The notes beneath the pieces were generated by a model. It worked only from the letters and a program-made list of their open reading frames with translations. It was not told the origin of the DNA and ran no database searches. DNA of 64,000 bases, from NCBI GenBank assembly GCA_965219995.1, contig CBDCOX010000002.1:2752001-2816000 (forward strand), read 5' to 3'. Position numbers and translations under genes: made by a program. Of this stretch, positions 4,895 through 49,867 are shown piece by piece (the stretch's first letter is position 1; the number at the start of each line of letters is the position of its first letter). Source of the DNA: Candidatus Latescibacterota bacterium. Its GTDB lineage: Bacteria; Latescibacterota; UBA2968; GCA-2709665.

Positions 4895-6904
4895 GTGGAA
4901 GGCTCTCAAGCACAACGCCTGGGGAATCGGGCCTACCAACAACACGCGTCTTCGGAGAATCATCTCGCGTCTTCACGGGACGGTCTGACGTTGCGGGCTT
5001 TCCTGATCGGGCTCCTTCTCTGCGTGTTCCTTGGTGTCGCGCTGACGCACAATCGTATGGTCGTCCAGGGGCCCTTCATGGGCAGCTACTATATGGACCG
5101 GGGCGTGCTGTTCGTTTTCTTCGTCCTTGTTCTGGCCGTAAACCCCCTGGCGGCGGCCCTGAAGCGCCGATATGCGCTGGGGCGGGGCGAGTTGTTGGCC
5201 ATCTACGTCATGTTGCTGTTTCTGATGCCGTCGTGGAAAATCACCAAGGCCCTGCTGGGCTTTATGACGGGCGTCACCTACTATGCCTCGCCGGAAATGC
5301 GGCACCTGGAAGCGGTGTTGCCCAATGCCCTTCCCTGGCTGTCGAACCTGGATACGCAAGCGGTAAGGGGGCTGTACGACGGTCTTCCCGCCGGCGACCC
5401 GGTGCCCTGGTGGACGTGGGTGGTTCCCCTGTGGAGCTGGGGGTCGTTCCTGGTCGTACTCTACGTCGTGCTCGTCTGCCTGGCCGTCCTGATGAGAAAG
5501 CAGTGGGAAGAGCACGAACGGTTTGCGTTTCCCATCATGCAAGTGCCGCTCGAGATGAGCGAGGCAGGGGCGCGAAAGGTGGGTCCCCTGTTCCGCAGCA
5601 GGGTGATGTGGGGGGGATTCGCGGTTCCGTTTCTGATCGGAATGTTGAACGGCCTTCAGCGGTACTACTATTCGCTTCCGCGGATTCCTCTGAGAACGGT
5701 GATCTGGATCTTCCGACGGGCGATCCCCTTGCATATCGGCCTGCACTTTGCGATTTTTGGGTACTCGTATTTCGTGAATACGGACGTAAGCCTGAGCATC
5801 TGGCTGTTCAACGTCATCGCCAAATGCGTCAGCGGAACTCTGGCCATCGTCGGGGCGGAAACCTACGGCGTTTCCGGGGTTGTGGGACGGCACAGTTCGC
5901 AGGGATCGGCATTCCTGGCGATGATGGGCATGGGCTATATGCTCGGCCTGGCGGGGTACAGTCTGTGGATCGCGAGGGGACACCTGCGGCAGGTGTGGGC
6001 CAGGGCGACGGGCAGACCTTCGCGCCTGGACGATTCGGAGGAGGTGATCCCCTACCGCTCCGCCGTGGCCGGCATCGTTGCGGGGACGCTCTATCTGGGG
6101 TGCTGGCTTTATCAGGCGGGAATCTCGCCGCATCTCGTCCTGCTGCTGGGCTTCTTCTGCTTTGTCGTGTTTCTCGTTCTCGCCCGCATCGTGAGCGAGA
6201 CCGGATATTCCGTCACCTATTCCCCGCTCAACCCGTCGGAATTCGTGGTGTGCGCGGTGGGCTCAGCGGCGTTCGGACCCACGGGGCTGACTTCTCTCGG
6301 CGTCGGCTTCGCCTGGACGATGACCCGGCTGAATACGCTGATGCCCCGGGCCTCGGGCGCGCTGAGACTCGCGCGGGAGATCGGTCGCAAGCGGGGGCTG
6401 GTCCTGGCGATGGGCGCAGCGCTTGCAGCGGGCCTCGTCACCGCAGGCTATACAACGCTTCAACTGGGTTACGAACACGGCGGCCGCAACCTGGATTACT
6501 GGTTCAGGGACGTCAACGATTGCGCGCTTCCGTTCGACGAATACATCGGCCGCCGTCTGCTTTCGCCGACTCCGGTCTATTTTCCAGGATTTCTGTACAC
6601 GGCGCTGGGCGCCGGCGTTGTCGTCGCTCTGATGTCGCTCCGGTCGCGCCTACCCTGGTGGCCGCTGCACCCGGTGGCGCTTCCCGTAAGCACGATCGCC
6701 TATACACACCATTACTTCTTCAGCGTGTTTCTCGCCTGGGGAATCAAGGCGCTCTTGCTGCGGTTCGGAGGCGCCAATCTCTACAGAATGACCCGGCCGT
6801 TCTTCATGGGAATCATCCTGGGCGAGGCGGTCTGCCTGGGGATGTGGATCGTTATCGACAGCATCACCGGTAAAGTGGGCGGGATCTGGATCCTGCAACC
6901 CTAA
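4895..6904 (+). CDS. DUF6785/DUF6784-type polytopic membrane protein, putative transporter (paralog 1)
   Basis: Many hydrophobic segments; motifs 'LTLRAFLIG', 'RKQWEEHERFAFPIMQVP', 'ARIVSETG', 'WWPLHPV', 'RFGGANLYRMTRPFFMGIILGE'. Confidence 0.8.
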   Translation: MEGSQAQRLGNRAYQQHASSENHLASSRDGLTLRAFLIGLLLCVFLGVALTHNRMVVQGPFMGSYYMDRGVLFVFFVLVLAVNPLAAALKRRYALGRGELLAIYVMLLFLMPSWKITKALLGFMTGVTYYASPEMRHLEAVLPNALPWLSNLDTQAVRGLYDGLPAGDPVPWWTWVVPLWSWGSFLVVLYVVLVCLAVLMRKQWEEHERFAFPIMQVPLEMSEAGARKVGPLFRSRVMWGGFAVPFLIGMLNGLQRYYYSLPRIPLRTVIWIFRRAIPLHIGLHFAIFGYSYFVNTDVSLSIWLFNVIAKCVSGTLAIVGAETYGVSGVVGRHSSQGSAFLAMMGMGYMLGLAGYSLWIARGHLRQVWARATGRPSRLDDSEEVIPYRSAVAGIVAGTLYLGCWLYQAGISPHLVLLLGFFCFVVFLVLARIVSETGYSVTYSPLNPSEFVVCAVGSAAFGPTGLTSLGVGFAWTMTRLNTLMPRASGALRLAREIGRKRGLVLAMGAALAAGLVTAGYTTLQLGYEHGGRNLDYWFRDVNDCALPFDEYIGRRLLSPTPVYFPGFLYTALGAGVVVALMSLRSRLPWWPLHPVALPVSTIAYTHHYFFSVFLAWGIKALLLRFGGANLYRMTRPFFMGIILGEAVCLGMWIVIDSITGKVGGIWILQP

Positions 6905-6979
6905 CCGTAACCGGACCGGGTGCGGGCATTGAGTGAGGCTGGGTGAGGTCGGTCAACCCACTGAAAGAGAGTTGAAGAC

Positions 6980-7807
6980 ATGGAAGCGGGAACTGACGTG
7001 GACGAACAGTTGCTCGACAAACTGAATCAGATGTGCGTCAACGGCTGGTGTGTCGTCGAGGACGTCGTCCCTCCGGACCGGGTCGCGGCGGTGAGAGCGC
7101 GCGTTATGGATGCCGTGCATCGGCATGCGAACACCGAAACGCTCGAGGACAAGGGCATCGGGCACGTTTCGGGCTTTGTCGCCCGGGAACAGTCATTCGC
7201 GCCGTACGTGGCGGATTCCGGCGTCATGGGCGTCGTCAAGGGCATGCTGGGCGACCACGTCCGGATCTCTTTCACGACCGCAACGGTCAACTTTCCCGGA
7301 AACCCGCGCGGCGGATGGCACGCCGACTGGCCCTTCAACCAGAACAACGCCGGACATATCTCCGCACCCTATCCCGACGCGGTGATGCACCTTACCACGC
7401 TATGGATGCTCTCGCCCTTCAGCACGGAGAACGGCGGGACCCTCATTCTTCCCGGCAGCCACCGTTCCACGAACAATCCCAGCGGGGGAAACGGTTTCGA
7501 CCCGCTCGGCGCGATTCCCGGTGAATGCAACGCGGAAGGCGAAGCGGGAAGCGTGCTGATGCTGGACAGCCGGCTCTGGCACGCCACGGCCCCCAACCGT
7601 TCCCACGAGCCGCGCGTATCGGTGGTAATTCGCTACGCGCCCTGGTGGCTCGATACAAGCGTCCTGATGCCCGGGTCCGAAGAGCGGAGACTGATGTTGG
7701 AAGCAACGGGGCTGAATTCACCCGAAGTCCCGCCCGTCCCGCGGGAAGTCTATGACACCATGCCCGAAAGGGTGAAGCCCCTTTTCCGGCACTGGGTGCG
7801 GTCGTAG
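6980..7807 (+). CDS. Phytanoyl-CoA dioxygenase (PhyH)-family Fe(II)/2OG oxygenase
   Basis: 'GWHADWP' HxD, 'NGGTLILPGSH', distal 'WHAT', 'R.SV' 2OG-binding Arg. Confidence 0.9.
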   Translation: MEAGTDVDEQLLDKLNQMCVNGWCVVEDVVPPDRVAAVRARVMDAVHRHANTETLEDKGIGHVSGFVAREQSFAPYVADSGVMGVVKGMLGDHVRISFTTATVNFPGNPRGGWHADWPFNQNNAGHISAPYPDAVMHLTTLWMLSPFSTENGGTLILPGSHRSTNNPSGGNGFDPLGAIPGECNAEGEAGSVLMLDSRLWHATAPNRSHEPRVSVVIRYAPWWLDTSVLMPGSEERRLMLEATGLNSPEVPPVPREVYDTMPERVKPLFRHWVRS

Positions 7808-7857
7808 GGACGGGCGTCTTGTCGAAACGTGTCAATTTTGTCCGGAGGTGCAGCGAA

Positions 7858-10916: not shown

Positions 10917-10950
10917 GATGTATGATATCAAAAATGATACTAATAGTCAA
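10917..10950 (-). promoter_or_regulatory. Sigma70 promoter with operator for hicAB, leaderless
   Basis: Minus strand TTGACT-17 nt-TATCAT-5 nt-ATG; TATCA-TTTT-TGATA palindrome in the spacer. Confidence 0.75.
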
Positions 10951-12896: not shown

Positions 12897-12931
12897 TGTG
12901 GCGTTCTCGACCCGGGATGCGGAGAATACCG

Positions 12932-38161: not shown

Positions 38162-38190
38162 AGTATAGTACATAACCCTTTGAAAAGCAA
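38162..38190 (-). promoter_or_regulatory. Sigma70 promoter driving the structured RNA/doxX
   Basis: Minus strand TTGCTT-17 nt-TATACT. Confidence 0.7.
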
Positions 38191-38269
38191 GATCGGTCGA
38201 GTGCCGTTCCCTTGCCGGGCAAGGCGCCGCGTCAACTCGGCCTTTGTCAGCATAAAAGGAGAAAAGCGC

Positions 38270-39430
38270 ATGAAGATTACCGACGTGAAAGTCCTGCCCA
38301 TCGATCGATATCTCTTTGTCCAGGTGCATACCGATGAGGGGATCGTGGGGCTGGGAGAGTCGGGCGCCTGGGGCTACCTGGAAGCCTCCGGCGAGGTGGT
38401 CAAGAGCTTCAGGGAATACCTGATCGGAAAGGACCCCCTGCGCATCGAACACCACTGGCAGGTCCTGTACCGGTGTACGCACTTTCGGGGCGCCGCGATC
38501 ATGGGCGCCCTGAGCGCGGTGGACATCGCCCTCTGGGATATTGCGGGCAAACATTTCGGGGTGCCGTGCTACCAGCTTCTGGGCGGCAGGTGCCGGGACA
38601 AGGCACGGGTCTACGGCCACGTCATCGGGAGCACCAAGGAGGAGCTTTTGAGAGGCTGCGTGCAGGCCAGGGCGGAGGGATATACAGCCGTTGGCCACCT
38701 GACGCCCTTTCTGGATGAGTCACGGAATGTCCCCTATTACAAGACCCATACGGACAAGATTCAGGACGCGATTCAGACGGTGGCGGCGTACCGCGAGGCG
38801 GTCGGCGACGAGGTGGACCTGTGCATCGAGATCCACCGGCGGCTGGACCCGGCAGAAGCCATCGTGTTGGGCAGGGCTATCGAACCCTATCGCCCGTTTT
38901 TCTACGAGGATCCAATCCGGCCCGACAATCTGGACGCCATGGCCGAAGTCGCAAAGAAAATCGCGGTCCCCATCGCCACCGGCGAGCGAATCCACACGAT
39001 CTACGAATTCGAAATGCTTCTTACGCGCAACGCGGTCCAGTATGTACGACCGGACGTCTGCATGGCCGGCGGCATCACCCATTGCAAGAAGATCGCGGCC
39101 CTCGCCGAGGCGCACTACGTGGACGTGGTGCCGCACAATCCGCTCAGCCCGGTGAGCACGGCCGCCTGCGTCCAGCTCGCCGCGTGCATCCCGAATTTCG
39201 CACTGCAGGAATACCCGAGGGGTGAAGGCGAGCCGCCGAAGAGCGAAATCGTGTCGGGCACGCTCACGCTGGACGACGGATTCCTGATCATCCCCGATGC
39301 TCCGGGAATCGGCGTGGAACTCGCGGAAGGCGCCGCGGAGAAATACCCGTTCCTCTCGCACCGACCGTTGCTGGATGAGGGGATGATGGTCACCAGGCTG
39401 CACGTCGACGGGTCCGTGGTCGACCAGTAG
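38270..39430 (+). CDS. Mandelate racemase/enolase-superfamily acid-sugar dehydratase (DgoD-like)
   Basis: 'VHTDEGIVGLGE', 'SAVDIALWDIAGK', metal ligands 'CIEIH..FYEDP..TGER', 'PHNP', 'LQEY'. Confidence 0.88.
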   Translation: MKITDVKVLPIDRYLFVQVHTDEGIVGLGESGAWGYLEASGEVVKSFREYLIGKDPLRIEHHWQVLYRCTHFRGAAIMGALSAVDIALWDIAGKHFGVPCYQLLGGRCRDKARVYGHVIGSTKEELLRGCVQARAEGYTAVGHLTPFLDESRNVPYYKTHTDKIQDAIQTVAAYREAVGDEVDLCIEIHRRLDPAEAIVLGRAIEPYRPFFYEDPIRPDNLDAMAEVAKKIAVPIATGERIHTIYEFEMLLTRNAVQYVRPDVCMAGGITHCKKIAALAEAHYVDVVPHNPLSPVSTAACVQLAACIPNFALQEYPRGEGEPPKSEIVSGTLTLDDGFLIIPDAPGIGVELAEGAAEKYPFLSHRPLLDEGMMVTRLHVDGSVVDQ

Positions 39431-39513: not shown

Positions 39514-40308
39514 ATGCTCGCGGGGATCTCAGACGAACAGTGGGCGCAGTTTGAGAATGAAGGGTACGTACGACTTGGAAAGGTGATGGACGACGACGAA
39601 CTGGCGGGCCTGCAGCGGCGCATAGACGACATCATGCTCGGCAACGTCAAGGTCCACGATCAGATGTTTATGCAGCTGGACAGCGAGACGGGCGACTATT
39701 CGGAGAAGCGGATCACAACGAGAGGGCACCAGGTATCGACGTTGAACTATCGAAAGATCCAGGACCTGGAGTTCGACCCGCTGTTCCTGTCCTACATTCA
39801 GAAACCGGTTTTCCGCGACATCTGCGCGAGGGCCTACGGTCCCGAGACGCCGATATCCTGCTATCGGGCCATGTTTATGAACAAGCCGGCGGGGAAGGGT
39901 ACAACACTACCCTGGCACCAGGACCGGTTCAGCATTCTCGACACGGATCCGATCGTAACCGTGTGGACGGCGCTGGATCGGGTGTCGGTTGAGAACGGCT
40001 GCGTAGGGATCGTGCCCGGGTCCCACCGGGGCACTTTCGAGCAGGACGACTCCGCCAGCTTCGCCTTTCTGACCGACGATCAGGCCACCGCCGTTCTGGA
40101 AAGGGAAGCGCATGAGTACCTGGAAATGGAGGCGGGGGAAGCGGCACTGTTACATAACTGGCTGCTCCACGGATCGGGCGTGAACCGGACCGACGCCTCC
40201 CGCCGCGGGTTCAGCTGCTGTTACATGGACGCCGCCACAAGGTCCGACCATGGGACCACCTTCTCAATCATCTTCGGCGAGGGCGCCCTGACCCCCGGAA
40301 CACTCTAA
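39514..40308 (+). CDS. PhyH-family Fe/2OG dioxygenase
   Basis: 'NKPAGKG..LPWHQD', 'ENGC..IVPGSH', 'LLHGSGVN....RRG'. Confidence 0.9.
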   Translation: MLAGISDEQWAQFENEGYVRLGKVMDDDELAGLQRRIDDIMLGNVKVHDQMFMQLDSETGDYSEKRITTRGHQVSTLNYRKIQDLEFDPLFLSYIQKPVFRDICARAYGPETPISCYRAMFMNKPAGKGTTLPWHQDRFSILDTDPIVTVWTALDRVSVENGCVGIVPGSHRGTFEQDDSASFAFLTDDQATAVLEREAHEYLEMEAGEAALLHNWLLHGSGVNRTDASRRGFSCCYMDAATRSDHGTTFSIIFGEGALTPGTL

Positions 40309-40346: not shown

Positions 40347-42362
40347 GTGGACGCTGTTTCGGCGAAAACGCCCGAATGCGCGGGTTCGGCGTCGAACGAG
40401 AAGACCGCCGAGAGAGATGGTCTGACGCCGCGCGCGTTCGGAATCGGCCTCATCCTGTGCGTACTCATGTGCGTGGGTCTCACCTACAACCGCATGATCA
40501 CCCAGGGCTCCTTCATTGGCGGCGGGTACTACATGGACCGGGGCGCGCTGATTGTTCTGTTCGTCCTGGTCCTGGCCGTGAATCCGCTGCTGGGCGTGAT
40601 CAGGAACCGGTTCGCCCTGACGCGTGGCGAATTGCTCGCCATCTACACCATGTTTCTCATCCTCCTGCCCGCGTGGGTGATGACCAAGCCGGTGATCCTC
40701 TATACGACCGGCGTCACCTACCACGCGACGCCGGAGTTGCGTCACATCGAGGCCGTTCCCCCCCACCTGCTGCCATGGCTGGTGCCGCAGGGCGCCGAGA
40801 CGGTCAAAAAACTCTACGAAGGACTTCCCAGGGGAGGTTCGATCCCGTGGCTGGGATGGGTTCTGCCCCTGTGGAGCTGGGGGTCGTTCCTTATCGTGCT
40901 CTTCATCGTGCTGATTTGCCTGGGCGTGCTGATGCGGAGGCAATGGGAGGAACACGAACGGTTCGCGTTCCCCCTGATGCAGGTGCCGCTCGCGATGCTG
41001 GAGTCCGGAAAGGGCCGGATCGCGCCTGTTTTCCGCAGCCGGCTGCTGGCCGCCGGGTTCGCGATCCCGTCTCTGGTCGGCACACTACGGGGGCTCCGGT
41101 ATTACTTTCCAAACATTCCCGTCATCAACCTGGGCACGCACGTTCGCATCTTCCGGCGGACGATGGTACTGCCCTTCAAGGTCCATTTCCTTGTACTCGC
41201 ATATTCCTATTTCATCAATCTGGACGTGAGTCTCAGCCTGTGGGTGATAAACCTGGTTACCAAGGTGATTCGCGGCGCACTGGCGATGGTTGGCGCGGGC
41301 CAGACCTGGGGCGTGTCCGGTGTCGTGGGACGTTACAGTTCCCAGGGATCCGAATTTCTGGCGTTGATGGGGATGGGGTATATCCTCGCGCTGGCCGCGT
41401 ACAGCCTGTACGTTGCCAGGGGCCACCTCCAGCAGGTATGGGAGCAGGTCCGCGGCCGCCCCTCGCGCCTGCGAGACTCGGACGAAATCGTCTCCTACCG
41501 GTCGGCCGTGCTCGGCGTTGTTCTGGGTCTGAGTTACCTTGGACTGTGGCTCTATCAGGCGGGAATTTCGCCGCCGCTGGTTCTGTTTCTTCTTGTTTCC
41601 AGTCTCATCGTCTTCTTTGTGATGGCGCGGATTGTGAGCGAAACGGGATTTGTCGCGACCTACTCCCCCCTCAATCCGTCCGAGTTCGTGGTGTGCGCGG
41701 TGGGCTCCTCGGCGTTCGGTCCGACGGGCCTGGCCACGCTGGGGATCAGCTACGTGTGGACGATGACGCGCAGAAATACATTGATGCCGCACGCCATGGG
41801 CGCGTTGCGGCTTGCGCGCGAAATCGGAAGGAAGCGGGGGCTTGTCTGGGCAATGGGAGCGGCGCTGGTCCTGGGGCTCGTCGCCACGGGCTACACGACG
41901 TTGAGTTTCGGGTATACCCACGGCGGCGTGAACATCGACTATCCGTGGTTCAGCAACGTGAACGACGCAGCTTCGCCGTTCGACGAATTTATCGGACGCC
42001 GGCTGCTGGAACCCAGCCCGGTCTTCACGATGGGTTTCCTCTATACGGCCCTGGGTACCGGGGTTGCCGCCCTGCTGATTCTGCTCAGGATGCGTCTGCC
42101 CTGGTGGCCGTTCCATCCGGCCGCGCTGCCTTTGAGTACGGTGTGGTACATGGACTGGTTCGGATTCAGCGTGTTCCTGGCGTGGGGCATCAAGGCGATC
42201 ATTCTGCGGGTAGGCGGTGCGGACCTCTACCGAAAGACGCGTCCGTTCTTTATCGGGATGATCCTGGGCGAGGTCATCTGCTCGGGAGGTTGGTCGGTGG
42301 TAAGCGCCTTTACGGGACGGCTGAAAACCTGGCCATTCATGGGCTACTGGAGTTCGTCGTAA
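40347..42362 (+). CDS. DUF6785/DUF6784-type membrane protein (paralog 2)
   Basis: 'GLTPRAFGIG', 'QWEEHERFAFPLMQVP', 'TYSPLNPSEFVVCAVGS', 'WWPFHP'. Confidence 0.8.
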   Translation: MDAVSAKTPECAGSASNEKTAERDGLTPRAFGIGLILCVLMCVGLTYNRMITQGSFIGGGYYMDRGALIVLFVLVLAVNPLLGVIRNRFALTRGELLAIYTMFLILLPAWVMTKPVILYTTGVTYHATPELRHIEAVPPHLLPWLVPQGAETVKKLYEGLPRGGSIPWLGWVLPLWSWGSFLIVLFIVLICLGVLMRRQWEEHERFAFPLMQVPLAMLESGKGRIAPVFRSRLLAAGFAIPSLVGTLRGLRYYFPNIPVINLGTHVRIFRRTMVLPFKVHFLVLAYSYFINLDVSLSLWVINLVTKVIRGALAMVGAGQTWGVSGVVGRYSSQGSEFLALMGMGYILALAAYSLYVARGHLQQVWEQVRGRPSRLRDSDEIVSYRSAVLGVVLGLSYLGLWLYQAGISPPLVLFLLVSSLIVFFVMARIVSETGFVATYSPLNPSEFVVCAVGSSAFGPTGLATLGISYVWTMTRRNTLMPHAMGALRLAREIGRKRGLVWAMGAALVLGLVATGYTTLSFGYTHGGVNIDYPWFSNVNDAASPFDEFIGRRLLEPSPVFTMGFLYTALGTGVAALLILLRMRLPWWPFHPAALPLSTVWYMDWFGFSVFLAWGIKAIILRVGGADLYRKTRPFFIGMILGEVICSGGWSVVSAFTGRLKTWPFMGYWSSS

Positions 42363-42443: not shown

Positions 42444-44465
42444 ATGTCAGAACGCGACCGGAAACTCCGCCGTGCCGCGCTGCTGCTCTTTCCGGATGCC
42501 GTGCTGAACGAGGAGACGCTCGACCGGATTGTCCGGGAAGGGTTCACCGACGTGGGCGCGGGCGTCACGGTCACGCCGGCGATAAAACAACAGGGCTTCA
42601 CGCTGGAACAGTCGGAGGGACTCGCCCGGATGTGCGAGGAACGGAACCTGGGATTCATCGCCTTCACCGGGTACATCAAGTATCAGGAACATCTGTTGGC
42701 GGAAGAACCCCACCGGCTGATGTATATGGTCGGCGATGACGGGGTCCTGGACCTGGACGGGCTTCCGGTCCGGTATCTGTGTCCTTTTCGGCCCGAGAAC
42801 AAGAGCCACTACCTCACCCTGCTGATGGAAATCTGCAACTGGCCTGCGGTGCGGGAAATCCACCTCAACGACGAAGCATGCCTCGGGTTCGGAGACGGCA
42901 CAATCGGCTGTTACTGCGCGTTCTGCGAGTCTGAATTCAGCAGACGGACCGGCGTCATGCCTCCCCGGGTTGCGGATTGGGATGACCCGTTGTGGTATAC
43001 ATGGCTGGAAAACCGCTTTGAAAACTGGGACGCGGTGCACTCAGAGTTTCGAAGCGCCATCAAAGACGTCCGTCCCGACGTGGTTGTGGGCATCCAGCAC
43101 AGTCCCGCCATCCCCGAGCGGAACTACAATGCCTGGCAGACGGCCATCCGCCTCGCCCGCGACGCGCGTTCACAGGACGTAATCGCCACGGACCCCTATC
43201 ATTTCAATCACGACGATCTCATTCTGCACCGGCCGCATCGCAGGATCCTCTCGGAGACCACGAGAAGCCTGATGGGCGCGTGCATGGGCCGGCAGGTGGA
43301 TATCTATCCCCAGGGCTTCATGCCGCCGGCACAGGCGGTGCCGATGGGCAGGCAGGACGGTCTGCTCGCCGGCGTGGTGCCGTTCGCGCTGGGCGCAGAC
43401 CTGGTGATGCCGTTCACTTACGAGCAGATGAAGATCATCCCGGGATTCTTCGAAGCGTTCGACGAGACCCGGCGCCTCTTGCCGGTGTTCGCGTCACATC
43501 GTCCTTACAGCTTCGCCACGATGCTGATGCCCCAGCAGTCCGAAATCACCGGCCACTACGAGTCGAATTGGGGACACGAGGGGTTGATTCAGATGGTCGA
43601 TATGGTCTATCGGACCGGATTGCCGTGGCGATGGTTCTGGGACGAGCGCCTGGACGACGCTGGCGACCAGCTCACGGGACCGGTGATCCTGCCCGAGGCG
43701 CATTGCCTCACACAGTCCCAGCTCGATTGTATCAACGCGGTTGCGGAACGCGGAGAGGGTCTCCTGTGGGTTGGCAACCGGCCGACCGCTCCATGGCCGG
43801 GCAATGGTCCGTGCAAACTGCCCTTTGAAATTGAGTCGGGCGCCTTTGAAGTCGACCTCTTGCGCAACCATCCGCTTACAGAGGACCTGGAACATCCCGT
43901 GATCCTGGCGACCCGGGTGGAAGGCGGGCATCCGGACGGGCAGGTGCTGGGGACCGTGGATGGCGAGCCGGCCCTGGTGCTGGTCGAGGAAGGGTCCCGG
44001 CGGGAGGCCTGGCTGGCGGGCATGCCTGCCGTGAAATATACGGGAGCCGTACCCGGCATGTCTTTTCTGGAGGAGACGTCCAACGTTGCGTTGCTGAGGA
44101 GACTGATCTTCTGGGCGGCCGGCCGAAGGCCCCTGGCGCGGCTGACTCCCTTCCCGCCCGTGGACGATTACCGAACGCTGCGGCCGACCGACCGGAGGGC
44201 TGTGCCCACCATCGAGTTGCTTCCAATGTTCGATGGTGACGATACCCTGCTCGCTATCGTCTTTCCATATACGCCGGTAAGGAGCCAGACAGCGCTGGAG
44301 ATCGTCCTTCCCGAAGGAAGAAGCGCGCAAGACGTCAACGAGATCTGGTCGGGCGCAAACTGGAACGACCGCGTGATATCGGCGAAAGACGGAACGATGC
44401 GGATACCCCTCGATATTCCCGGCGACTGCGACCTCCTGGCAATACACATACAGTTCGCAGGTTGA
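42444..44465 (+). CDS. GH42-like TIM-barrel hydrolase (paralog 3)
   Basis: 'YLCPFRPENK', 'EIHLNDEA', 'GCYCAFC', 'TDPYHFNH', 'IYPQGF'. Confidence 0.65.
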   Translation: MSERDRKLRRAALLLFPDAVLNEETLDRIVREGFTDVGAGVTVTPAIKQQGFTLEQSEGLARMCEERNLGFIAFTGYIKYQEHLLAEEPHRLMYMVGDDGVLDLDGLPVRYLCPFRPENKSHYLTLLMEICNWPAVREIHLNDEACLGFGDGTIGCYCAFCESEFSRRTGVMPPRVADWDDPLWYTWLENRFENWDAVHSEFRSAIKDVRPDVVVGIQHSPAIPERNYNAWQTAIRLARDARSQDVIATDPYHFNHDDLILHRPHRRILSETTRSLMGACMGRQVDIYPQGFMPPAQAVPMGRQDGLLAGVVPFALGADLVMPFTYEQMKIIPGFFEAFDETRRLLPVFASHRPYSFATMLMPQQSEITGHYESNWGHEGLIQMVDMVYRTGLPWRWFWDERLDDAGDQLTGPVILPEAHCLTQSQLDCINAVAERGEGLLWVGNRPTAPWPGNGPCKLPFEIESGAFEVDLLRNHPLTEDLEHPVILATRVEGGHPDGQVLGTVDGEPALVLVEEGSRREAWLAGMPAVKYTGAVPGMSFLEETSNVALLRRLIFWAAGRRPLARLTPFPPVDDYRTLRPTDRRAVPTIELLPMFDGDDTLLAIVFPYTPVRSQTALEIVLPEGRSAQDVNEIWSGANWNDRVISAKDGTMRIPLDIPGDCDLLAIHIQFAG

Positions 44466-44500
44466 ATGCTTTCAAGCCGCAGTCCGGAGGTGCCCAACGA

Positions 44501-46480
44501 ATGGCTCAGGCAGCCCGAGTGGTCACGTCGGATGTCCGAAAAACGGCCGGGTCGACCGAAGACGGTCTGTCGTGCCGGGCGTTCCTGATCGGACTGGGGT
44601 TGTGCGCCCTTCTGGGGGTCTGGCTGACGTACAACCGGATGGTGGTCCAGGGGCCGTTTATGGGCTGGTACTTCCTGGACCGGGGCGTGCTGTTCGTCTT
44701 TTTCTGTCTGGCTGTACTGATCAACCCCCTGCTCGGTCTGCTGAAACGCCGCTTCGCCCTGGGCCGGGGCGAGTTGCTGGCCATCTACGCGATGCTGCTG
44801 CTCCTGATGCCCGCATGGGCGATGTGCAAGGCATTGCTCGGGTTCATGACCGGCGTCACCTACTACGCCTCCCCGGAGATGCGCCACCTGGAGGCCGTCC
44901 TGCCCTATTCGCTGCCGTGGCTGGCGGTCCTGGACGCCGAGCCGGTCAGGTGGCTGTACGAAGGCCTGCCGAAGGGAGGTTCCGTCCCCTGGTGGGCGTG
45001 GGTGGTCCCTCTATGGAGTTGGGGTTCGTTCCTGGTCGCGCTGTTTGTGGTACTGGGCTGTGTGGCCGTCATCCTGAGAAAGCAGTGGGAGGAACACGAA
45101 CGGTTCGCCTTCCCGATCATGCAGGTCCCCCTCGCGATGGGCGAGCGTGGAGAAGGTCTGATGGGACCGCTGTTCCGTGGCCGGATGATGTGGTCGGGTT
45201 TTGCGGTTCCGTTCGGCATCGGCTCCATCAACGCACTGCACAGCTATTTCCACACGCTGCCCCGGATAAGCCTGCGGGCGATGATCTGGGTCTTCAGGCG
45301 CGCGATTCCGCTGTCGATAAGGCTCAACTTCGCGCTTCTCGGCTATGCGTATTTCGTGAACCTGGACGTGAGTCTCAGCATCTGGCTCCTCAATGTCATC
45401 GCCAAATGCATCAACGGCGCGTTCGTCATGCTGGGCGCGGAACGATACGGCGTATCCGGGATGGTGGGACGCCACAGCTCCCAGGGCTCGGAACTCCTGG
45501 CGTTTATGGGAATGGGGTACATGCTGGCCCTGGCCGGGTACAGCCTTTGGATTGCCCGGGGGCATTTGAAGGCTGTCTGGGCAAAGACGCTGGGTCGCGG
45601 TTCGAGCCTGGACGATTCGGTGGAGGTGCTCCCCTATCGCACGGCGGTGGCTTGTGTGTTCGTGGGGACGCTGTATCTGGGATGCTGGCTATACCAGGCC
45701 GGGCTGCCGCCGCATGTGATCGCCATGCTGTTTGCGGCCTGCTTTGTCGTCTTTCTCGTACTCGCGCGGATCGTGAGCGAAACCGGCTATGCCGCAACCT
45801 ATTCTCCGCTGAATCCGTCCGAGTTTGTGGTCTGTGCGGTCGGGTCCTCGGCCTTCGGTCCCACGGGGCTGGTTACGAACGGACTGAATTACGTATGGAC
45901 GATGACGCGGCTGAATACGATGATGCCCCGTGCTTCCGCGGCGCTCCGGCTGGCGGGGGAAATGGGAAAAACCCGAGGCCTGATATGGGCGTTGGGCGCG
46001 GCCCTGGCCGTGGGTCTGGTCGTCGCCAGCCATACGACGCTGGATCTCGGATACGCCCACGGCGGACGAAACCTCGACTACTGGTTCCGCGACGTGAACG
46101 ACGCCGCCCTGCCGTTCGACGAATACGTGGGACGCCGCCTGCTGGATCCGAGCCCGGTCTTCTACGGGGGATTTGCATATACAGGATTGGGTCTCGGCAT
46201 TGCCGTGCTGCTCATGGTCCTGCGAATGCGCCTGCCTTGGTGGCCCCTGCACCCGGTGGCGTTGCCGGTCAGTACGATCTGGATGACGGAGCACTACTAT
46301 TTCAGCGTTTTTCTGGCCTGGGGGATCAAAGCGCTGGTGATGAAGTTCGGCGGGGCTTCCCTGTACCGGAAAACCAGGCCGTTCTTTATCGGGATTATCG
46401 TGGGTGAGGCGGTTTGTTTGGGAATGTGGAGCATTATTGACTATTTTACAGGGAAAGTCGGAAATATATCCCTGCTCTAA
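44501..46480 (+). CDS. DUF6785/DUF6784-type membrane protein (paralog 3)
   Basis: GGAGG before ATG 44501; closest to paralog 1 ('MTGVTYYASPEMRHLEAVLP', 'HGGRNLDYWFRDVND'). Confidence 0.8.
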   Translation: MAQAARVVTSDVRKTAGSTEDGLSCRAFLIGLGLCALLGVWLTYNRMVVQGPFMGWYFLDRGVLFVFFCLAVLINPLLGLLKRRFALGRGELLAIYAMLLLLMPAWAMCKALLGFMTGVTYYASPEMRHLEAVLPYSLPWLAVLDAEPVRWLYEGLPKGGSVPWWAWVVPLWSWGSFLVALFVVLGCVAVILRKQWEEHERFAFPIMQVPLAMGERGEGLMGPLFRGRMMWSGFAVPFGIGSINALHSYFHTLPRISLRAMIWVFRRAIPLSIRLNFALLGYAYFVNLDVSLSIWLLNVIAKCINGAFVMLGAERYGVSGMVGRHSSQGSELLAFMGMGYMLALAGYSLWIARGHLKAVWAKTLGRGSSLDDSVEVLPYRTAVACVFVGTLYLGCWLYQAGLPPHVIAMLFAACFVVFLVLARIVSETGYAATYSPLNPSEFVVCAVGSSAFGPTGLVTNGLNYVWTMTRLNTMMPRASAALRLAGEMGKTRGLIWALGAALAVGLVVASHTTLDLGYAHGGRNLDYWFRDVNDAALPFDEYVGRRLLDPSPVFYGGFAYTGLGLGIAVLLMVLRMRLPWWPLHPVALPVSTIWMTEHYYFSVFLAWGIKALVMKFGGASLYRKTRPFFIGIIVGEAVCLGMWSIIDYFTGKVGNISLL

Positions 46481-46541: not shown

Positions 46542-47420
46542 ATGCTTTCCGGAGAACAGATTGATTTCTACCGTACCAACGGCTATCTGGGGGTGGAGGA
46601 CGTTCTCTCCCGCGACGAGGTCGAGGAACTTTGCCGGGTGACCGACGCGTTTGTCGAAGCGTCGAGGCAGGTCACCGAAACCGACAGCGTATTCGACCTG
46701 GAACCGGGCCATACGCCCGAATTCCCCCAGTTGCGCCGTCTCATAGACCCGTCAAAGCAGCACGACGCGTATGCCCGGGGCCTGCGCCACGAGAAGATAC
46801 TCGACATAACCGCACAACTCATCGGGCCCGGTATTCGGACGAATGGGGACAAGCTCAATATGAAATCCGCGGAGGTGGGCAGCCCCGTGGAATGGCACCA
46901 GGACTGGGCGTTCTACCCCCACACCAACGACGACCTGCTGGCCGTCGGCGTCGCGATAGACGATATGACCCTCGAGAACGGCTGCCTGCTTGTCGTGCCA
47001 GGGTCTCACAAGGGGCGCATCCACGACCACCACCTCAACGGTCGCTTTGCAGGGGCCGTTACCGAGCTTGATTTCACCGGCGAAGGCGCGGTCCCGATCG
47101 AACTCAAGGCCGGCGGCATTTCCATCCACCACGTCCGGACGCTTCACGCATCCGCCCCGAACACTTCCGGCAAGCCACGGCGTCTTCTGCTATTTATGTA
47201 TTGCGCGGTTGATGCATTTCCGCTGGTTCAACCGATCAATACCTGGGAGGAGTTCAACGGCAAGATTCTTCGCGGGGAACCCACACGCGAACCGCGCATG
47301 GTCAGCGTCCCGGTGCGGGTCCCGCTTCCTCCGGCGGAACGCACCGGATCCATATATGAAATTCAGACCATCCTCGAGGAGAGTAAGATGACCCCTGTCG
47401 AAGCCGGCGCCGGAAATTGA
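46542..47420 (+). CDS. PhyH-family Fe/2OG dioxygenase
   Basis: 'KLNMK...GSPVEWHQDWAFYPHTND', 'ENGCLLVVPGSH', 'TLHASAPN.S..PRR'. Confidence 0.92.
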   Translation: MLSGEQIDFYRTNGYLGVEDVLSRDEVEELCRVTDAFVEASRQVTETDSVFDLEPGHTPEFPQLRRLIDPSKQHDAYARGLRHEKILDITAQLIGPGIRTNGDKLNMKSAEVGSPVEWHQDWAFYPHTNDDLLAVGVAIDDMTLENGCLLVVPGSHKGRIHDHHLNGRFAGAVTELDFTGEGAVPIELKAGGISIHHVRTLHASAPNTSGKPRRLLLFMYCAVDAFPLVQPINTWEEFNGKILRGEPTREPRMVSVPVRVPLPPAERTGSIYEIQTILEESKMTPVEAGAGN

Positions 47421-47468: not shown

Positions 47469-47940
47469 GCCGTCAGAATGAAGCGAAAATCAGCTCACAC
47501 GGAGACACGAAGACACAAAGAGAACCCGGAAGGCGGGGAGACGTTAGGCGTAAGAGGGGAGAGGAAATGAGTGCCCTAAAGGCGGGGAGACGTTAGACGG
47601 GAGATGATATCAGTGCCCAATGGTGTTTCTTGTCGTTACGATTACGGTAGAGAAACAGGCACGGTTAGCGTGAAAACACTGTGGTAACATTATCATCTAC
47701 CGTCTACCCTCTTACGTCTCACCGCTTTTCTTGCCCGATGCGGTTTCATTTCTCGCCGGAGGCATAAAGGTAGAACCAATCGGGCAAGGATGTCATCTAA
47801 CGTCTTACGTCTCACGTCTCTCCGGTTTTATTGCCCCGTGCGGGTTCATCGATTGCCGGAGGCAAAAAGGAAGAACCAAACAGGCAATAATGTCTTCTAA
47901 CCTCTCACGTCTAACGTCTTACCCCCGGAAAGGGGGTTAG
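47469..47940. repeat. Non-coding array of ~100-bp hairpin units separated by heptamer (TCTNACG) repeats
   Basis: Units at 47739 and 47839 (period 100); a diverged unit near 47612-47725; heptamers GAGACGTTAGACG (47581-47600) inverted to TCTAACGTCTTACGTCTCACG. Confidence 0.75.
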
Positions 47941-47944
47941 GTCG

Positions 47945-49867
47945 GTGGCGGAGTACACACGAGACGGACTGACGGGCAGGGCTTTTCTGATCGGCCTCGT
48001 CCTCTGCCTCGGTCTGGCACTGGCCATCCCGTACAACCGCATGGTGATCCAGGGCACCTCGCTGCACTATTATTTCGTGGACCGGGGCATCCTGTTTGTT
48101 TTTCTGTTTCTTATCCTCATCTGTAACGTCGTCCTCAAGCCGGCGCGCTCGCTGAAGCGAGGAGAACTCCTGTGCATCTTTTCGATGTTGCTGGTGTCCA
48201 TGCCCGCCCTGTGGATGGTCAAGTGGCTCATCGCCTTCCTCACCGGTGCAACCTACTACGCCTCTCCGGAGCGTCCAGACCTCGAGGCGGTGCTGCCCCA
48301 TATTTTGCCGTGGACGGCCCCACGTAACGCGGAGGCGGTACGAGGGTTCTACGAGGGGCTTCCGCAGCATGTTCCCCTGCCCTGGCTGGCCTGGCTGGCC
48401 CCCCTGGCGAGTTGGGGTTCTTTTTTTCTTGTATTGTTCGGAGTGCTGGTATGCATCGCCGTGATCTTTCGCAAACAGTGGGCCGAGCACGAGCGGTTTG
48501 CGTTCCCGATTCTGCAGGTGCCGCTGGAAATGGCCGAAACCGGAGACGGGCGGCTGGGTCCGCTGTTCAGGAACCGGTTGATGTGGGCGGGGTTCGCGAT
48601 TCCACTTCTGATCGGTACCATCAACGGGTTGAATCACTATTTCCATACGCTGCCCCGAATCCAGATGGGAACGATGCTCACGATCTTTCAGGGAACGACC
48701 CCGTTGCCCCTGAGGATGCACTTCGCAATTCTCGGGTATTCCTACTTTGTAAACCTGGACGTGAGCCTCAGCATCTGGCTTTTCAACGTGATCTCCAAGG
48801 TCATCAGGGGAACGCTGGCCGTTGTGGGCGCGGAGGTTACGGACGTGTCCGGGATGGTGGGCCGGTTCAGTTCGAGGGGCTCGTCGTTTCTCGCACTGAC
48901 GGGGATGGGGTATATGCTGGTGCTGGCCGCTTACAGCGCGTGGACGGCGCGGGGCCACCTGCGCGGGGTCTACGCCAGGGCGATGGGGAAGTCGGCGGCG
49001 GCCGATGATTCCGATGAAGTGATCTCCTACCGGGCGGCCGTATTCGGCACCCTGGGCGGCCTGGTTTATCTCGGGTGCTGGCTGCACCAGGCGGGAATCT
49101 CGTTCGTATTGATCCTGTTTCTGTTTTTTTCGTGTATCGTTGTCTTTTTTGTACTCTCCCGGATTGTGTGCGAGGCGGGGTTCGTGGCCACGTATTCGCC
49201 GATCAACCCCGCCGAGTTTGTGGTTTGCGCGACGGGTTCGTCGGCCTTCGGTCCGGCGGGTCTCGTAACGCTCGGGTTCGGATATGCCTGGACGATGACT
49301 CGTGTTAGCAATGTGATGCCCCGTGCGATGGGGGCGCTGTGGCTGTCGAGGACAATGAGACGCAGGCGCGGCCTGATCTGGGCGATGGGAGCGGCGATGG
49401 CGGTTGGACTGATCTGCGCGAGCGCGTTGACCCTGGACCTGGGCTACGCGCGCGGCGGACTGAACCTGGACCGGCACTTCCGTGATTATTCGCGCATTCC
49501 ATTCGATGCCTTTGTGGGTTCGCGCATGCTGGAGCCGAGTCCCGTATTCGCGAAGGGTATGGTATATACCGGACTCGGGATGGGGGTTGCGGGTCTGCTG
49601 ACCCTGCTGAGAATGCGGCTTCGATGGTGGCCGCTACACCCCGTGGCGCTGCCGTTGTGTACGATCTGGTACACGGATACGTATTTCTTCAGCGTGTTCA
49701 TGGCCTGGGCAATGAAAGCAATCGTCTTGAAATTCGGCGGCGCGACGCTCTACCGCAGGACACGGCCCCTGTTCATGGGGGTTATCCTGGGGGAGGCCAC
49801 TGGCGCGGGTGTGTGGGTCATCGTGGACTATTTCACGGGGACGATCACCAACAGGATCTTCATATAG
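47945..49867 (+). CDS. DUF6785/DUF6784-type membrane protein (paralog 4)
   Basis: 'DGLTGRAFLIG', 'KQWAEHERFAFPILQVP', 'WWPLHPV', 'KFGGATLYRRTRPLFMG'. Confidence 0.8.
   Translation: MAEYTRDGLTGRAFLIGLVLCLGLALAIPYNRMVIQGTSLHYYFVDRGILFVFLFLILICNVVLKPARSLKRGELLCIFSMLLVSMPALWMVKWLIAFLTGATYYASPERPDLEAVLPHILPWTAPRNAEAVRGFYEGLPQHVPLPWLAWLAPLASWGSFFLVLFGVLVCIAVIFRKQWAEHERFAFPILQVPLEMAETGDGRLGPLFRNRLMWAGFAIPLLIGTINGLNHYFHTLPRIQMGTMLTIFQGTTPLPLRMHFAILGYSYFVNLDVSLSIWLFNVISKVIRGTLAVVGAEVTDVSGMVGRFSSRGSSFLALTGMGYMLVLAAYSAWTARGHLRGVYARAMGKSAAADDSDEVISYRAAVFGTLGGLVYLGCWLHQAGISFVLILFLFFSCIVVFFVLSRIVCEAGFVATYSPINPAEFVVCATGSSAFGPAGLVTLGFGYAWTMTRVSNVMPRAMGALWLSRTMRRRRGLIWAMGAAMAVGLICASALTLDLGYARGGLNLDRHFRDYSRIPFDAFVGSRMLEPSPVFAKGMVYTGLGMGVAGLLTLLRMRLRWWPLHPVALPLCTIWYTDTYFFSVFMAWAMKAIVLKFGGATLYRRTRPLFMGVILGEATGAGVWVIVDYFTGTITNRIFI

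Follow-up and report, generated by a model that had tools for sequence, protein, structure and literature searches.

GH42 enzymes are typically cytoplasmic, and the transporters usually partnered with them in GH42 gene clusters are of the ABC, MFS, or GPH type. The PULs of Bacteroidota are defined by SusC/SusD. In the OPT/Yellow Stripe family (OPT/YSL; TC 2.A.67; Pfam PF03169), the fold is known so far from one plant protein, barley Yellow Stripe 1 (HvYS1; PDB entries 7WST and 7WSR), a proton symporter and importer built from inverted repeats, with a Cys250-Cys671 disulfide and proton sites at Asp446, Asp490, and Asp494 (PMC9691689). Passages of the OPT literature describe 16 (or 17) transmembrane segments that arose by internal duplication (PMC3061005), and the cargo they name, which includes no sugars, comprises peptides, iron-siderophores, glutathione, folate, and metal chelates (PMC3061005, PMC12687453). 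Here, we describe four paralogous membrane proteins encoded in a 64,000-nucleotide stretch of contig CBDCOX010000002.1 of a Candidatus Latescibacterota bacterium, referred to below as the window. They belong to a family, DUF6785/DUF6784, that our search of about 8.4 million papers found nowhere mentioned.

Four DUF6785/DUF6784 paralogs

With Pfam HMMs, all four proteins matched DUF6785 (PF20581) at 335 to 371 bits against a gathering cutoff of 25 and DUF6784 (PF20580) at 88 to 97 bits against a cutoff of 26.4, in that N-to-C order in each (Table 1). Both domains, and nothing but these two, were found in 70/70 relatives scanned. The paralogs share 56.5 to 71.3% pairwise identity, and all four carry the invariant motifs W.EHERFAFP, TYSP.NP.EFVVCA.GS, and WWP.HP, in agreement with an initial annotation that had read them as diverged polytopic proteins with shared motifs. 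Paralog 1 shows at least 8 hydropathy peaks. The gene starts given in that annotation also hold for paralogs 1, 2, and 4, but the start of paralog 3 moves from 44501 to a TTG at 44462, which overlaps the stop of the preceding GH42-like gene by 4 nucleotides (nt); the ATG at 44501, in-frame Met14, is an alternative start. Overlapping long open reading frames in other frames (4870-6873, 40376-42739, 44572-46407, and 47897-49477 minus) were rejected, as they have no Pfam match and an atypical third-position GC of 0.46 to 0.59, versus 0.77 to 0.80 in the real DUF6785 frames.

The family is large, with 4575 cluster representatives (50% identity) matching at an E value of ≤0.001, and it is multicopy, with up to 3 copies per 20 kb. 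In an alignment of 125 sequences, W..E.ER..FP and WWPLHP are conserved family-wide, W179 is invariant, and E183, P188, W562, P563, and P566 are each conserved at ≥90%. The TYSP..NP..EFVVCA block is confined to the clade of the window proteins, whose clade-specific motifs are common to all four.

Table 1. Features of the window discussed in the text
Feature	Coordinates	Strand	Remarks
DUF6785/DUF6784 paralog 1	4895..6904	+	669 aa; PF20581 E 6e-106, PF20580 E 2.1e-26; predicted OPT-fold transporter
DUF6785/DUF6784 paralog 2	40347..42362	+	671 aa; PF20581 E 2e-101, PF20580 E 2.9e-27
DUF6785/DUF6784 paralog 3	44462..46480	+	672 aa; PF20581 E 1.1e-99, PF20580 E 7e-28
DUF6785/DUF6784 paralog 4	47945..49867	+	640 aa; PF20581 E 1e-110, PF20580 E 3.5e-25; protein modeled
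GH130-like	3657..4685	+	Glyco_hydro_130 E 2.9e-7; NCBIfam beta-1,2-mannobiose phosphorylase match below cutoff
GH130-like paralogs of 3657	8827-10107 (weak), 31107-32108		Paralogy by sequence comparison
PhyH dioxygenases, tandem pair	6980-7807, 7819-8811	+	Pfam PhyH E 4.2e-19, 3.6e-7
PhyH Fe(II)/2-oxoglutarate dioxygenase	39514..40308	+	Pfam PhyH E 3.7e-32
PhyH dioxygenase	46542..47420	+	Pfam PhyH E 1e-37; solved relatives EvdO2 (1e-17, nearest), EctD, SnoK
Enolase-superfamily sugar-acid dehydratase, galactonate-dehydratase-like	38180..39430	+	MR_MLE_C E 8e-62
GH42-like three-domain protein	42444..44465	+	673 aa; flanked by paralogs 2 and 3; AlphaFold2 and Foldseek
Paralogs of GH42-like 42444-44465	12896-14947, 35294-37396		Paralogy by sequence comparison
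Amidohydro_2 hydrolase/decarboxylase-like, metal-dependent	49883..51442	+	519 aa; Pfam E 2.8e-40
Unknown-family protein	51476..53188	+	570 aa; paralog 11046-12896

Predicted fold

Paralog 4 was modeled with AlphaFold2 from the 125-sequence alignment, with no templates, giving a pLDDT of 95.1 and a pTM of 0.94. The model contains about 14 long helices, one of them with 57 residues, and additional short helices. HvYS1 was the sole significant fold match in the PDB by Foldseek; its two entries, 7wst_A and 7wsr_A, scored E values of 3.7e-8 and 6.8e-8, a probability of 1.00, and TM scores of 0.65 to 0.70 (0.66/0.70 for 7wst_A), and all other matches had TM scores of ≤0.16, with 0.13 for the next best. 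About 686 aligned columns cover the whole length of both proteins. An OPT-like fold had been guessed at in the initial annotation, with an enzyme or polymerase fold named as the contrary outcome. No such fold was among the matches, and the guess is now backed by a confident model.

Sequence identity between the model and HvYS1 is only 10 to 13%. PF03169 matched 0/70 family members even at an E value of ≤10 and 0/4 window paralogs at ≤0.01, and NCBIfam at ≤1 gave the four paralogs no meaningful match and no OPT model. A phmmer search with paralog 4 against all PDB sequences (E ≤ 10) did not find HvYS1, and the 125-sequence profile returned zero PDB matches (hmmsearch, E ≤ 10), though HvYS1 was in the set. 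Comparison of the N- and C-terminal halves with hhalign gave a weak match restricted to the first helix regions (E value of 0.021, probability of 2%). A weak but independent hint came from the ESM Atlas, where the closest clusters outside DUF6785 were "peptide transporter" and OPT clusters (scores, 0.78 to 0.80). Our best reading is that DUF6785/DUF6784 represents a distant, predicted OPT-fold secondary transporter, with a fold link that is structural and invisible to sequence methods.

Gene neighborhood in the window

A hydropathy scan of the 2.4- to 53.2-kb region identified the four paralogs and a small DoxX protein (37444-37878, minus) as its only polytopic proteins. None of the 40 + 26 open reading frames scanned there belongs to the ABC, MFS, TRAP, or SSS families, so the four DUF6785 proteins are, as first proposed, the only transporter candidates. 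An MMPL/RND protein (56849-59152, minus) lies beyond this region. TonB_dep_Rec, Plug, SusD, and RagB are absent among the window open reading frames scanned, and no riboswitch or regulator offering a substrate clue was found.

Each paralog sits next to co-oriented enzyme genes. Paralog 1 lies 209 nt 3' of the GH130-like gene and 75 nt 5' of the tandem PhyH pair. Paralog 2 follows a PhyH gene by 38 nt and precedes the GH42-like gene by 81 nt; paralog 3 is spaced -4 nt from the GH42-like gene and 61 nt before the next PhyH gene. Paralog 4 has a 524-nt upstream gap and only 15 nt to the Amidohydro_2 gene. Same-strand gaps between transporter and enzyme are thus -4 to 81 nt, the exceptions being the upstream gaps of paralog 1 (209 nt) and paralog 4 (524 nt). 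The co-oriented PhyH, GH-like, and amidohydrolase neighbors described earlier were all recovered (four PhyH, GH130-like, GH42-like, and Amidohydro_2), together with the MR_MLE dehydratase, and the partner enzyme families, like the transporter itself, have undergone duplication. With a crude heuristic based on N-terminal hydrophobicity and applied to predicted starts, a clear signal peptide was seen only in a GH113 protein (27040), consistent with the earlier remark that most neighboring enzymes lack one.

The GH42-like barrels of the initial annotation proved real at the fold level. An AlphaFold2 model of the protein encoded between paralogs 2 and 3 (pLDDT, 92.4; pTM, 0.94) has the full three-domain fold, and its top Foldseek matches are all GH42 beta-galactosidases, over the full length (E values of 5e-25 to 1e-18; TM scores of 0.60 to 0.68). 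The Pfam GH42 catalytic-domain model does not match this protein. It scores 22.7 bits with GHL10 (cutoff, 27.9), its paralog at 12896 is likewise subthreshold for GHL10, and that at 35294 has only a GH42M match (Pfam). Across 43 relatives, D143/E144 and a cluster of four cysteines are invariant.

The dehydratase scores 330 bits with NCBIfam NF010624 (cutoff, 311), and its BLAST cluster recurs next to DUF6785 in other loci (L030, L035/L037, L042, L062, and L065). In the PDB, the Amidohydro_2 protein matches 5-carboxyvanillate decarboxylase, though weakly (1.4e-5). The unknown-family protein downstream of it has zero matches in Pfam, NCBIfam, and PDB; a language-model lead connects it to polysaccharide-deacetylase clusters (score, 0.95), with no Pfam support. 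Also encoded in the window are a CocE/NonD S15 hydrolase (20532), two C45 Ntn acyltransferase/hydrolases (17990 and 23719), a threonine-synthase-like PLP enzyme (2430), an SGNH esterase, and a GNAT protein.

Proposed function of the window paralogs

The predicted OPT/Yellow Stripe fold, combined with the sugar-processing neighbors, suggests that the paralogs probably act as nutrient importers, of a type not previously studied in bacteria. We favor a reading in which all four are OPT-fold carriers that import small glycosides or sugar derivatives for breakdown in the cytoplasm. Each would comprise a mobile core and a scaffold domain, formed from inverted repeats and operating in an elevator mode, and import would probably be ion coupled. 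Small glycosides, oligosaccharides, or sugar-derived acids would be delivered to the cytoplasm and there degraded by the presumably cotranscribed GH42-like, GH130-like, PhyH, sugar-acid dehydratase, and amidohydrolase enzymes, all apparently without signal peptides. The idea that the cargo may be acylated or modified sugars stems from the GH42-like fold, the SGNH esterase, the GNAT protein, and the polysaccharide-deacetylase lead. The initial annotation further proposed a single-subunit importer whose paralogs would be tuned to different substrates.

The paralogs might instead carry oligopeptides, glycopeptides, or amide- or carboxylate-rich compounds, closer to the peptides, iron-siderophores, glutathione, and folate that the OPT passages name (PMC3061005, PMC12687453), with the sugar-active neighbors present by coincidence or acting on a glyco-moiety. 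The S15, C45, PLP, and amidohydrolase proteins of the window would suit such cargo, as would the S9, S15, M42, and M28 peptidases, CN_hydrolase, AstE/AspA, FmdA, and Beta_elim_lyase proteins at other loci. However, the genes closest to paralogs 1 to 3 encode PhyH, GH130-like, and GH42-like proteins and no peptidases, the peptidase-like genes of the window lie 11 to 17 kb from the nearest paralog, and MR_MLE, GFO_IDH, aldo-keto reductase, sulfatase, and 3-keto-disaccharide hydrolase recur over loci. We consider this cargo unlikely.

Contexts of the family at other loci

We assigned 34 independent locus groups of DUF6785 to context classes by hand: 18/34 were catabolic-enzyme contexts, 6/34 contained a giant FtsX/MacB-like protein, 2/34 an SH3 protein and an ABC ATPase, and 8/34 fell otherwise. 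Metabolic neighbors included Amidohydro_2, MR_MLE, GFO_IDH, aldo-keto reductase, sulfatase, PhyH, 3-keto-disaccharide hydrolase, and S15 proteins, among others. SSF proteins, in 2 loci, were the only other solute importers among the 243 neighbor proteins scanned, which included no MFS, TRAP, or binding-protein ABC importers. The SH3 and ABC ATPase genes lie downstream of DUF6785, with HlyD also present in one of the two groups. Several loci adjoin PMT_2/TPR proteins or T9SS cargo, the latter in cluster 4. Mapped on the DUF6785 tree, the catabolic label is unclustered (14 changes versus 14.5 when shuffled), and the FtsX label is clustered (3 changes; 3/500 shuffles as low). The initial annotation had the family nucleating PUL-like loci. 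Family-wide, that claim fails, given the 18/34 and 6/34 counts, the unclustered catabolic label, and the lack of a SusC/SusD pair in the window; the family is not uniformly PUL-like because six groups lie beside giant FtsX/MacB-like proteins and four fusions occur.

In those six groups (L013, L056, L059, the L061 group, L066/L068, and L070), an FtsX/MacB_PCD/M28 protein of 1400 to 1670 aa adjoins DUF6785 or lies within 10 kb, and a conserved partner of 660 to 810 aa travels with it. DUF6785-FtsX fusions number four (P0135, P0250, P0269, and P0270), but they may be gene-calling read-through across adjacent genes. PMT_2 glycosyltransferase-like/TPR genes occur nearby in L039, L063, and L070, and GT2 genes occur in L039 and L059. 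The FtsX/MacB neighbors and the four fusions point to an envelope or export role for at least one subfamily. Extended to the whole family, this would make DUF6785 an exporter, a flippase, or a partner of an FtsX/MacB mechanotransmission ABC system, and the clustered FtsX label fits such a role; the window copies would then export or recycle an envelope glycoconjugate. That extension seems improbable, since FtsX, ABC ATPase, and glycosyltransferase genes are absent near all four window copies, a long, fully supported branch parts the window clade from the FtsX-linked clades, the tight window neighbors are degradative-type enzymes that appear cytoplasmic, and the only solved protein of the same fold is an importer (PMC9691689).

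Least probable is that DUF6785 is a membrane enzyme, sensor, or scaffold resembling HvYS1 by chance, or that the model misleads; the literature searched is silent on the family and the OPT likeness is structural only, but the model is very confident and came template-free from a deep, diverse alignment, the HvYS1 match is full length both ways and unique in the PDB, and the two DUF domains leave no soluble domain to house a catalytic site.

Implications

Placement with OPT/Yellow Stripe proteins gives the DUF6785 family a testable mechanism, that of an ion-coupled elevator carrier, and would carry a fold so far represented by one plant structure far into bacterial phyla that have been little studied. 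Should the window paralogs import glycosides or sugar derivatives, as we favor, the substrate class would be new for the OPT fold. More speculatively, DUF6785/DUF6784 could be a vast, overlooked prokaryotic branch of OPT-fold elevators that, in Latescibacterota and Gemmatimonadota, has expanded to provide the main inner-membrane route by which glycosides and sugar derivatives are taken up. Its place would be between T9SS-secreted extracellular enzymes and cytoplasmic GH42-like/GH130-like/PhyH modules, in a SusCD-independent PUL logic, with a sister subfamily in FtsX/MacB-type machines. A cargo of glycosides or sugar derivatives would also explain how these phyla, with no recognizable ABC, MFS, or TRAP importers, supply their numerous cytoplasmic glycosidase-like and dioxygenase genes, and DUF6785 loci could in that case be annotated as uptake-and-degradation units.

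Comparison with known systems

Like GH42 beta-galactosidase/alpha-L-arabinopyranosidase clusters, the window has a gene for a putatively cytoplasmic GH42-fold enzyme beside a transporter gene. It differs in that the enzyme has no Pfam GH42 catalytic-domain match and in that the partner is a predicted OPT-fold protein rather than an ABC, MFS, or GPH permease.

Compared with a Bacteroidota PUL, the window is without a SusC-like TonB-dependent transporter, SusD, or a hybrid two-component or ECF regulator, its candidate importer is a predicted inner-membrane secondary carrier, and its enzymes are, by the heuristic, apparently cytoplasmic for the most part. The two are alike in that degradative-enzyme genes form co-oriented arrays that include a dedicated (here predicted) uptake component and in that enzyme families are duplicated together with the transporter, and T9SS-cargo proteins adjoin DUF6785 in other loci.

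DUF6785 differs from OPT/YSL proteins in having no sequence relationship detectable by HMMER, and Pfam keeps DUF6785 and DUF6784 as separate families of unknown function. Its neighbors are sugar-active and oxidative enzymes, not peptide or metal-chelate genes, and one subfamily shows fusion or linkage to ABC components of the FtsX type, an arrangement absent from the OPT literature examined. Prokaryotic OPT members are likewise described as widespread and as being assessed from their genome context (PMC3061005). DUF6785 shares with OPT/YSL proteins an all-helical, polytopic single chain (roughly 14 to 16 membrane helices in the model), a similar size (640 to 670 aa versus about 600 resolved residues in HvYS1), and, in the model, the global fold, aligned over its full length.

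Four DUF6785/DUF6784 genes in the window

At the window's GC content of 61%, many long spurious open reading frames (ORFs) arise, and reading frames were therefore told apart by third-position GC, which is 0.72 to 0.86 in real genes; the plus strand carries almost every real gene between 2.4 and 53.2 kb. The initial annotation had named four DUF6785/DUF6784 paralogs and suggested an HMMER search against Pfam, and in that search all four ORFs matched both DUF6785 and DUF6784, the latter with E values of 2e-26 to 7e-28. The four are 56.5 to 71.3% identical to one another and are polytopic membrane proteins by hydropathy, and their alignment confirmed that the three motifs quoted in the annotation are invariant among them. 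The ORF of paralog 3 opens at TTG with a 4-nt overlap with the upstream stop, and position 44501 is its in-frame Met14. Chance ORFs are ruled out as an account of the paralogs by the Pfam matches and third-position GC. The alternative-frame ORFs that overlap these genes, of 526 to 787 amino acids (aa), have no family match in Pfam and an atypical third-position GC of 0.46 to 0.59; such ORFs are by-products of the high GC content and could lead gene callers astray.

Sequence searches linked the paralogs to no better-known family. When paralog 4 was compared with all PDB sequences by phmmer, the matches were noise alone, a profile of 125 family members had no PDB match at E≤10, NCBIfam gave no meaningful match to the paralogs, and none of 70 family members matched Pfam OPT, even at E≤10. 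The one recurrent extra Pfam match among those 70 was to UPF0182, a large membrane-protein family, below threshold in 3 proteins (best E 9.5e-5). The family is large, with 4575 representatives of 50%-identity clusters matching it at E≤0.001; at E≤1e-30 the number is 937. The source names seen were "hypothetical protein" or "DUF6785 family protein." The literature searched mentions neither DUF6785 nor DUF6784, and nothing relevant was found on Latescibacteria with OPT or PhyH.

Coordinates of features in the window and in related loci (L numbers, loci in other genomes with DUF6785 genes)
Feature	Position	Strand	Basis
Paralog 1	4895-6904	+	Pfam DUF6785, E 6e-106
Paralog 2	40347-42362	+	Pfam DUF6785, E 2e-101
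Paralog 3	44462-46480	+	Pfam DUF6785, E 1.1e-99
Paralog 4	47945-49867	+	Pfam DUF6785, E 1e-110
Alternative-frame ORFs	4870-6873, 40376-42739, 44572-46407 (+); 47897-49477 (-)		ORFs over DUF6785 genes
PhyH proteins	6980, 7819, 39514, 46542		Pfam
GH130-like proteins	3657, 31107; weakly 8827, 19054		Pfam/NCBIfam
Amidohydro_2	49883		Pfam/NCBIfam
Enolase-superfamily dehydratase	38180		Exceeds NCBIfam galactonate-dehydratase cut-off
673-aa GH42-like protein	42444-44465		Predicted structure
Paralogs of 673-aa protein	12896, 35294
570-aa protein	51476-53188
Paralog of 570-aa protein	11046
HicB-family antitoxin-like ORF	within 10288-10931	-	Pfam HicB, E 1.5e-14
Small ORF upstream of HicB-like ORF	10668-10931
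Metallophosphoesterase/propeller fusion	28867-31065
PorV/PorQ-family protein	1029-2168		NCBIfam, 147.7 bits (cut-off 90)
PorZ-like C-terminus	1-1155		Weak
MMPL/RND protein and LolA-like partner	55.9-59.2 kb	-
AAA_14/DUF4143 ATPase	61041-62228; L068:14581-15846
Giant FtsX protein	L013:11889-16640; L061:11761-16692; L056:4895-9361; L059:2057-6703; L070:11889-16124

Predicted structure of the DUF6785/DUF6784 proteins

Paralog 4 was modelled with AlphaFold2 from a 125-sequence alignment without templates; the model reached a pLDDT of 95.1 and a pTM of 0.94 and is helical throughout except for one hairpin. Among 350,542 PDB chains, Foldseek found exactly two matches at E≤0.001, 7wst_A and 7wsr_A, both of barley Yellow Stripe 1 (HvYS1), an OPT/YSL proton symporter of the elevator kind, and both spanning the whole length (probability 1.00, TM 0.65 to 0.70, about 686 columns, 10 to 13% identity). 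The next-best match, a proton pyrophosphatase, had a TM of 0.13, and the result rules out an enzyme or polymerase fold. On this evidence DUF6785 and DUF6784 are predicted together to make a single transporter-like fold of the OPT/YSL type that is unrecognisable as OPT by sequence. The annotation's guess of an OPT-like fold, with its proposed AlphaFold and Foldseek check, was thus upheld, and we regard the OPT fold, taken alone, as highly probable. In an independent language-model search the nearest clusters were those of "peptide transporter" and OPT proteins (scores 0.78 to 0.80), a lead at most, and an internal-repeat comparison by hhalign gave a weak match.

Blocks 301-320 and 415-431 are clade-specific, the second of them corresponding to the TYSP..NP..EFVVCA motif; in the model each comes after a long helix, and extended loops precede the next helix. 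One might speculate that this placing recalls the substrate-binding hairpins of HvYS1. Neither block varies among the four paralogs, and the two so do not explain specificity differences among them.

Neighboring genes and the sandwiched GH42-like protein

The spacing around the paralogs is operon-like. Paralog 1 is followed after 75 nt by a PhyH protein, after 11 nt by a second and after 15 nt by a GH130-like protein. Farther on, the order is PhyH, 38 nt, paralog 2, 81 nt, the 673-aa protein, a 4-nt overlap, paralog 3, 61 nt, and PhyH; paralog 4 is separated by 15 nt from the amidohydrolase, which lies 33 nt from the 570-aa protein. Further neighbors are a CocE/NonD hydrolase, two C45 proteins, an SGNH esterase, GH113, a BNR protein, Ldh_2 and GNAT. 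Pfam and NCBIfam agree with the initial description of PhyH, GH-like and amidohydrolase neighbors. By a crude heuristic GH113 alone has a clear signal peptide, in keeping with the earlier remark that most of these enzymes lack one. Among the ORFs scanned in 2.4 to 53.2 kb we found no ABC, MFS, TRAP or SSS transporter, and a small minus-strand DoxX is the sole other multi-helix membrane protein, which leaves the paralogs as the only importer candidates there, as had been claimed. Beyond this region there is an MMPL/RND protein that has a LolA-like partner.

The 673-aa protein has a sub-threshold GHL10 match as its sole Pfam match. Its model, from 43 relatives (pLDDT 92.4, pTM 0.94), matched GH42 beta-galactosidases and an alpha-L-arabinopyranosidase over the whole three-domain length (Foldseek E 5e-25, TM 0.60 to 0.68), with GH35, GH164 and a beta-1,2-glucosyltransferase ranking lower. 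D143/E144 and a four-cysteine cluster (C113, C156, C158 and C161) are invariant in the family alignment and presumably resemble the acid/base region and zinc-binding cysteine cluster of GH42. The family also occurs in Planctomycetota and Armatimonadota.

The nearest solved relatives of the PhyH protein at 46542 are EvdO2, EctD and SnoK, with small-molecule substrates that include glycosides. For the 570-aa protein, a language-model lead to polysaccharide deacetylases (score 0.95) found no confirmation in Pfam at E≤1, NCBIfam or PDB. In the window the 673-aa and GH130-like proteins each have two paralogs and the 570-aa and C45 proteins one each, and the enzyme set was therefore duplicated together with the transporter.

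A promoter and terminator scan of 37.3 to 53.4 kb gave counts (5 and 12) not above those in shuffles (4.0 and 12.7), Rfam found no element in the window and hence no riboswitch clue, and the ORFs scanned in 2430-53188, about 50 kb of catabolic genes, included no recognisable transcription-factor family. The HicB-like ORF, on the opposite strand, lies in the only sizeable break in the plus-strand enzyme array; the small ORF upstream of it is common to the window and L008. A 732-aa fusion joins a calcineurin-like metallophosphoesterase (with MetallophosN) to a PQQ_2/BamB-like beta-propeller, and L063 has a separate PQQ_2 propeller near DUF6785. At the left edge lie a PorV/PorQ-family protein and a weakly PorZ-like C-terminus, both of type IX secretion.

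Relatives in other genomes

Scanning a single genome for each species, with a 22-sequence alignment as seed, confirmed at least 567 relatives. The best 70 of these loci, a sample biased towards the query, comprise 46 from Latescibacterota, 10 from Gemmatimonadota, 9 unassigned and one each from Handelsmaniibacteriota, Verrucomicrobiota, Planctomycetota, Chloroflexota and Ratteibacteria; they carry 103 DUF6785 genes, multi-copy loci being common. Genes were called by third-position GC or, near 50% GC, by ORF length. Loci linked at DUF6785 identity of at least 80% fall into 34 independent groups; the members of the window's group (L001-L003, L006-L011, L051 and L067) have the same gene order as the window.

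By hand-assigned context class, metabolic enzymes adjoin DUF6785 in 18 of the 34 groups, the window's group and L004 included. A giant FtsX protein with a conserved partner occurs in 6, an SH3 protein with an ABC ATPase (and HlyD in one locus) in 2, and other contexts (T9SS-cargo proteins, TPR/FG-GAP, PMT_2, miscellaneous) in 8. Pfam was run on 243 neighbors, the genes up to 4 positions from DUF6785 in a single representative locus for each of the remaining 33 groups. Of the families behind the metabolic class, GFO_IDH occurred in 5 of these 33 loci, and Amidohydro_2, MR_MLE, PhyH, Sulfatase and aldo-keto reductase in 4 each; S15, DUF3604, SDR and 3-keto-disaccharide hydrolase were present too. 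SSF, in 2 loci, was the only other solute importer, with no MFS, TRAP or binding-protein ABC importer among the 243. In a FastTree tree of 44 DUF6785 proteins, the window's paralogs and L004 form one clade with support of 100 and a long stem. The catabolic label is not clustered (14 changes, where shuffling gave a mean of 14.5); catabolic contexts are thus spread all over the tree, yet are not the rule, these being group counts and no measure of enrichment.

The FtsX label is clustered (3 changes, as low in 3 of 500 shuffles). The giant protein, of 1400 to 1670 aa, combines Peptidase_M28, a MacB-like periplasmic core and an FtsX permease domain; it directly adjoins DUF6785 in L013, L056, L061 and L070 and lies within 10 kb in L059 and L066/L068. 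Downstream come the conserved partner of 660 to 810 aa and then a protein of about 330 aa. In four database proteins (P0135, P0250, P0269 and P0270) DUF6785 is fused to the FtsX region. The existence of this FtsX-linked subfamily demonstrates functional heterogeneity within the family.

Large proteins of 600 to 1130 aa, often with CHU_C/FlgD_ig type IX sorting domains and with no recognised catalytic domain, directly adjoin DUF6785 in 6 independent groups (L022-L028, L033/L034, L039, L040, L044, L045 and L015/L047) and may form the part of an uptake system that works outside the cell. An AAA_14/DUF4143 ATPase recurs near DUF6785 in unrelated groups (the window, L068, L003 and L026), probably through coincidence or mobile-element linkage.

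Proposed function and comparison with known systems

We propose that each paralog would transport a solute, that transport would be inward and driven by an ion gradient, by analogy with HvYS1 (PMC9691689), and that the cargo would be a glycoside or sugar derivative. The observed basis is the family membership and polytopic nature of the proteins, the unique whole-length fold match to HvYS1, the tight co-orientation with enzymes lacking signal peptides, the GH42-like fold of the sandwiched neighbor, and the absence of other importers from the region. One OPT-fold carrier per module, set among cytoplasmic glycosidase-like, phosphorylase-like, dioxygenase and dehydratase proteins, suggests that small glycosides, oligosaccharides or sugar acids are imported. 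We lean moderately towards this explanation as a whole, and the importer role by itself, argued from analogy, seems to us fairly probable. The sugar-type cargo by itself is a tentative assignment. A serious competitor is a peptide-like cargo, classical for OPT proteins: the window holds S15, C45, PLP and amidohydrolase genes, and PMC3061005 and PMC12687453 count peptides among OPT substrates. A further source was bioRxiv 10.64898/2026.08.27.747422.

The initial annotation inferred importers of acylated or modified sugars, with paralogs tuned to different substrates, that would nucleate loci like polysaccharide utilization loci (PULs). Its observation is confirmed and its reading partly supported: the OPT-like fold and the claim of sole importers hold, and the acylated-sugar cargo, the tuning of the paralogs and the PUL-like nucleation are conjectural. 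The association with metabolic enzymes is seen in 18 of 34 groups and is not the rule. SusC and SusD, the hallmark of a Bacteroidota-type PUL, are absent from the window, and the locus is therefore not of that type. The paralogs fail every sequence-based test of OPT/YSL membership and are therefore not filed in that family; by sequence they are members of DUF6785/DUF6784, which appear, from the model and by analogy, to be like the OPT/YSL transporters in predicted fold and proposed working.
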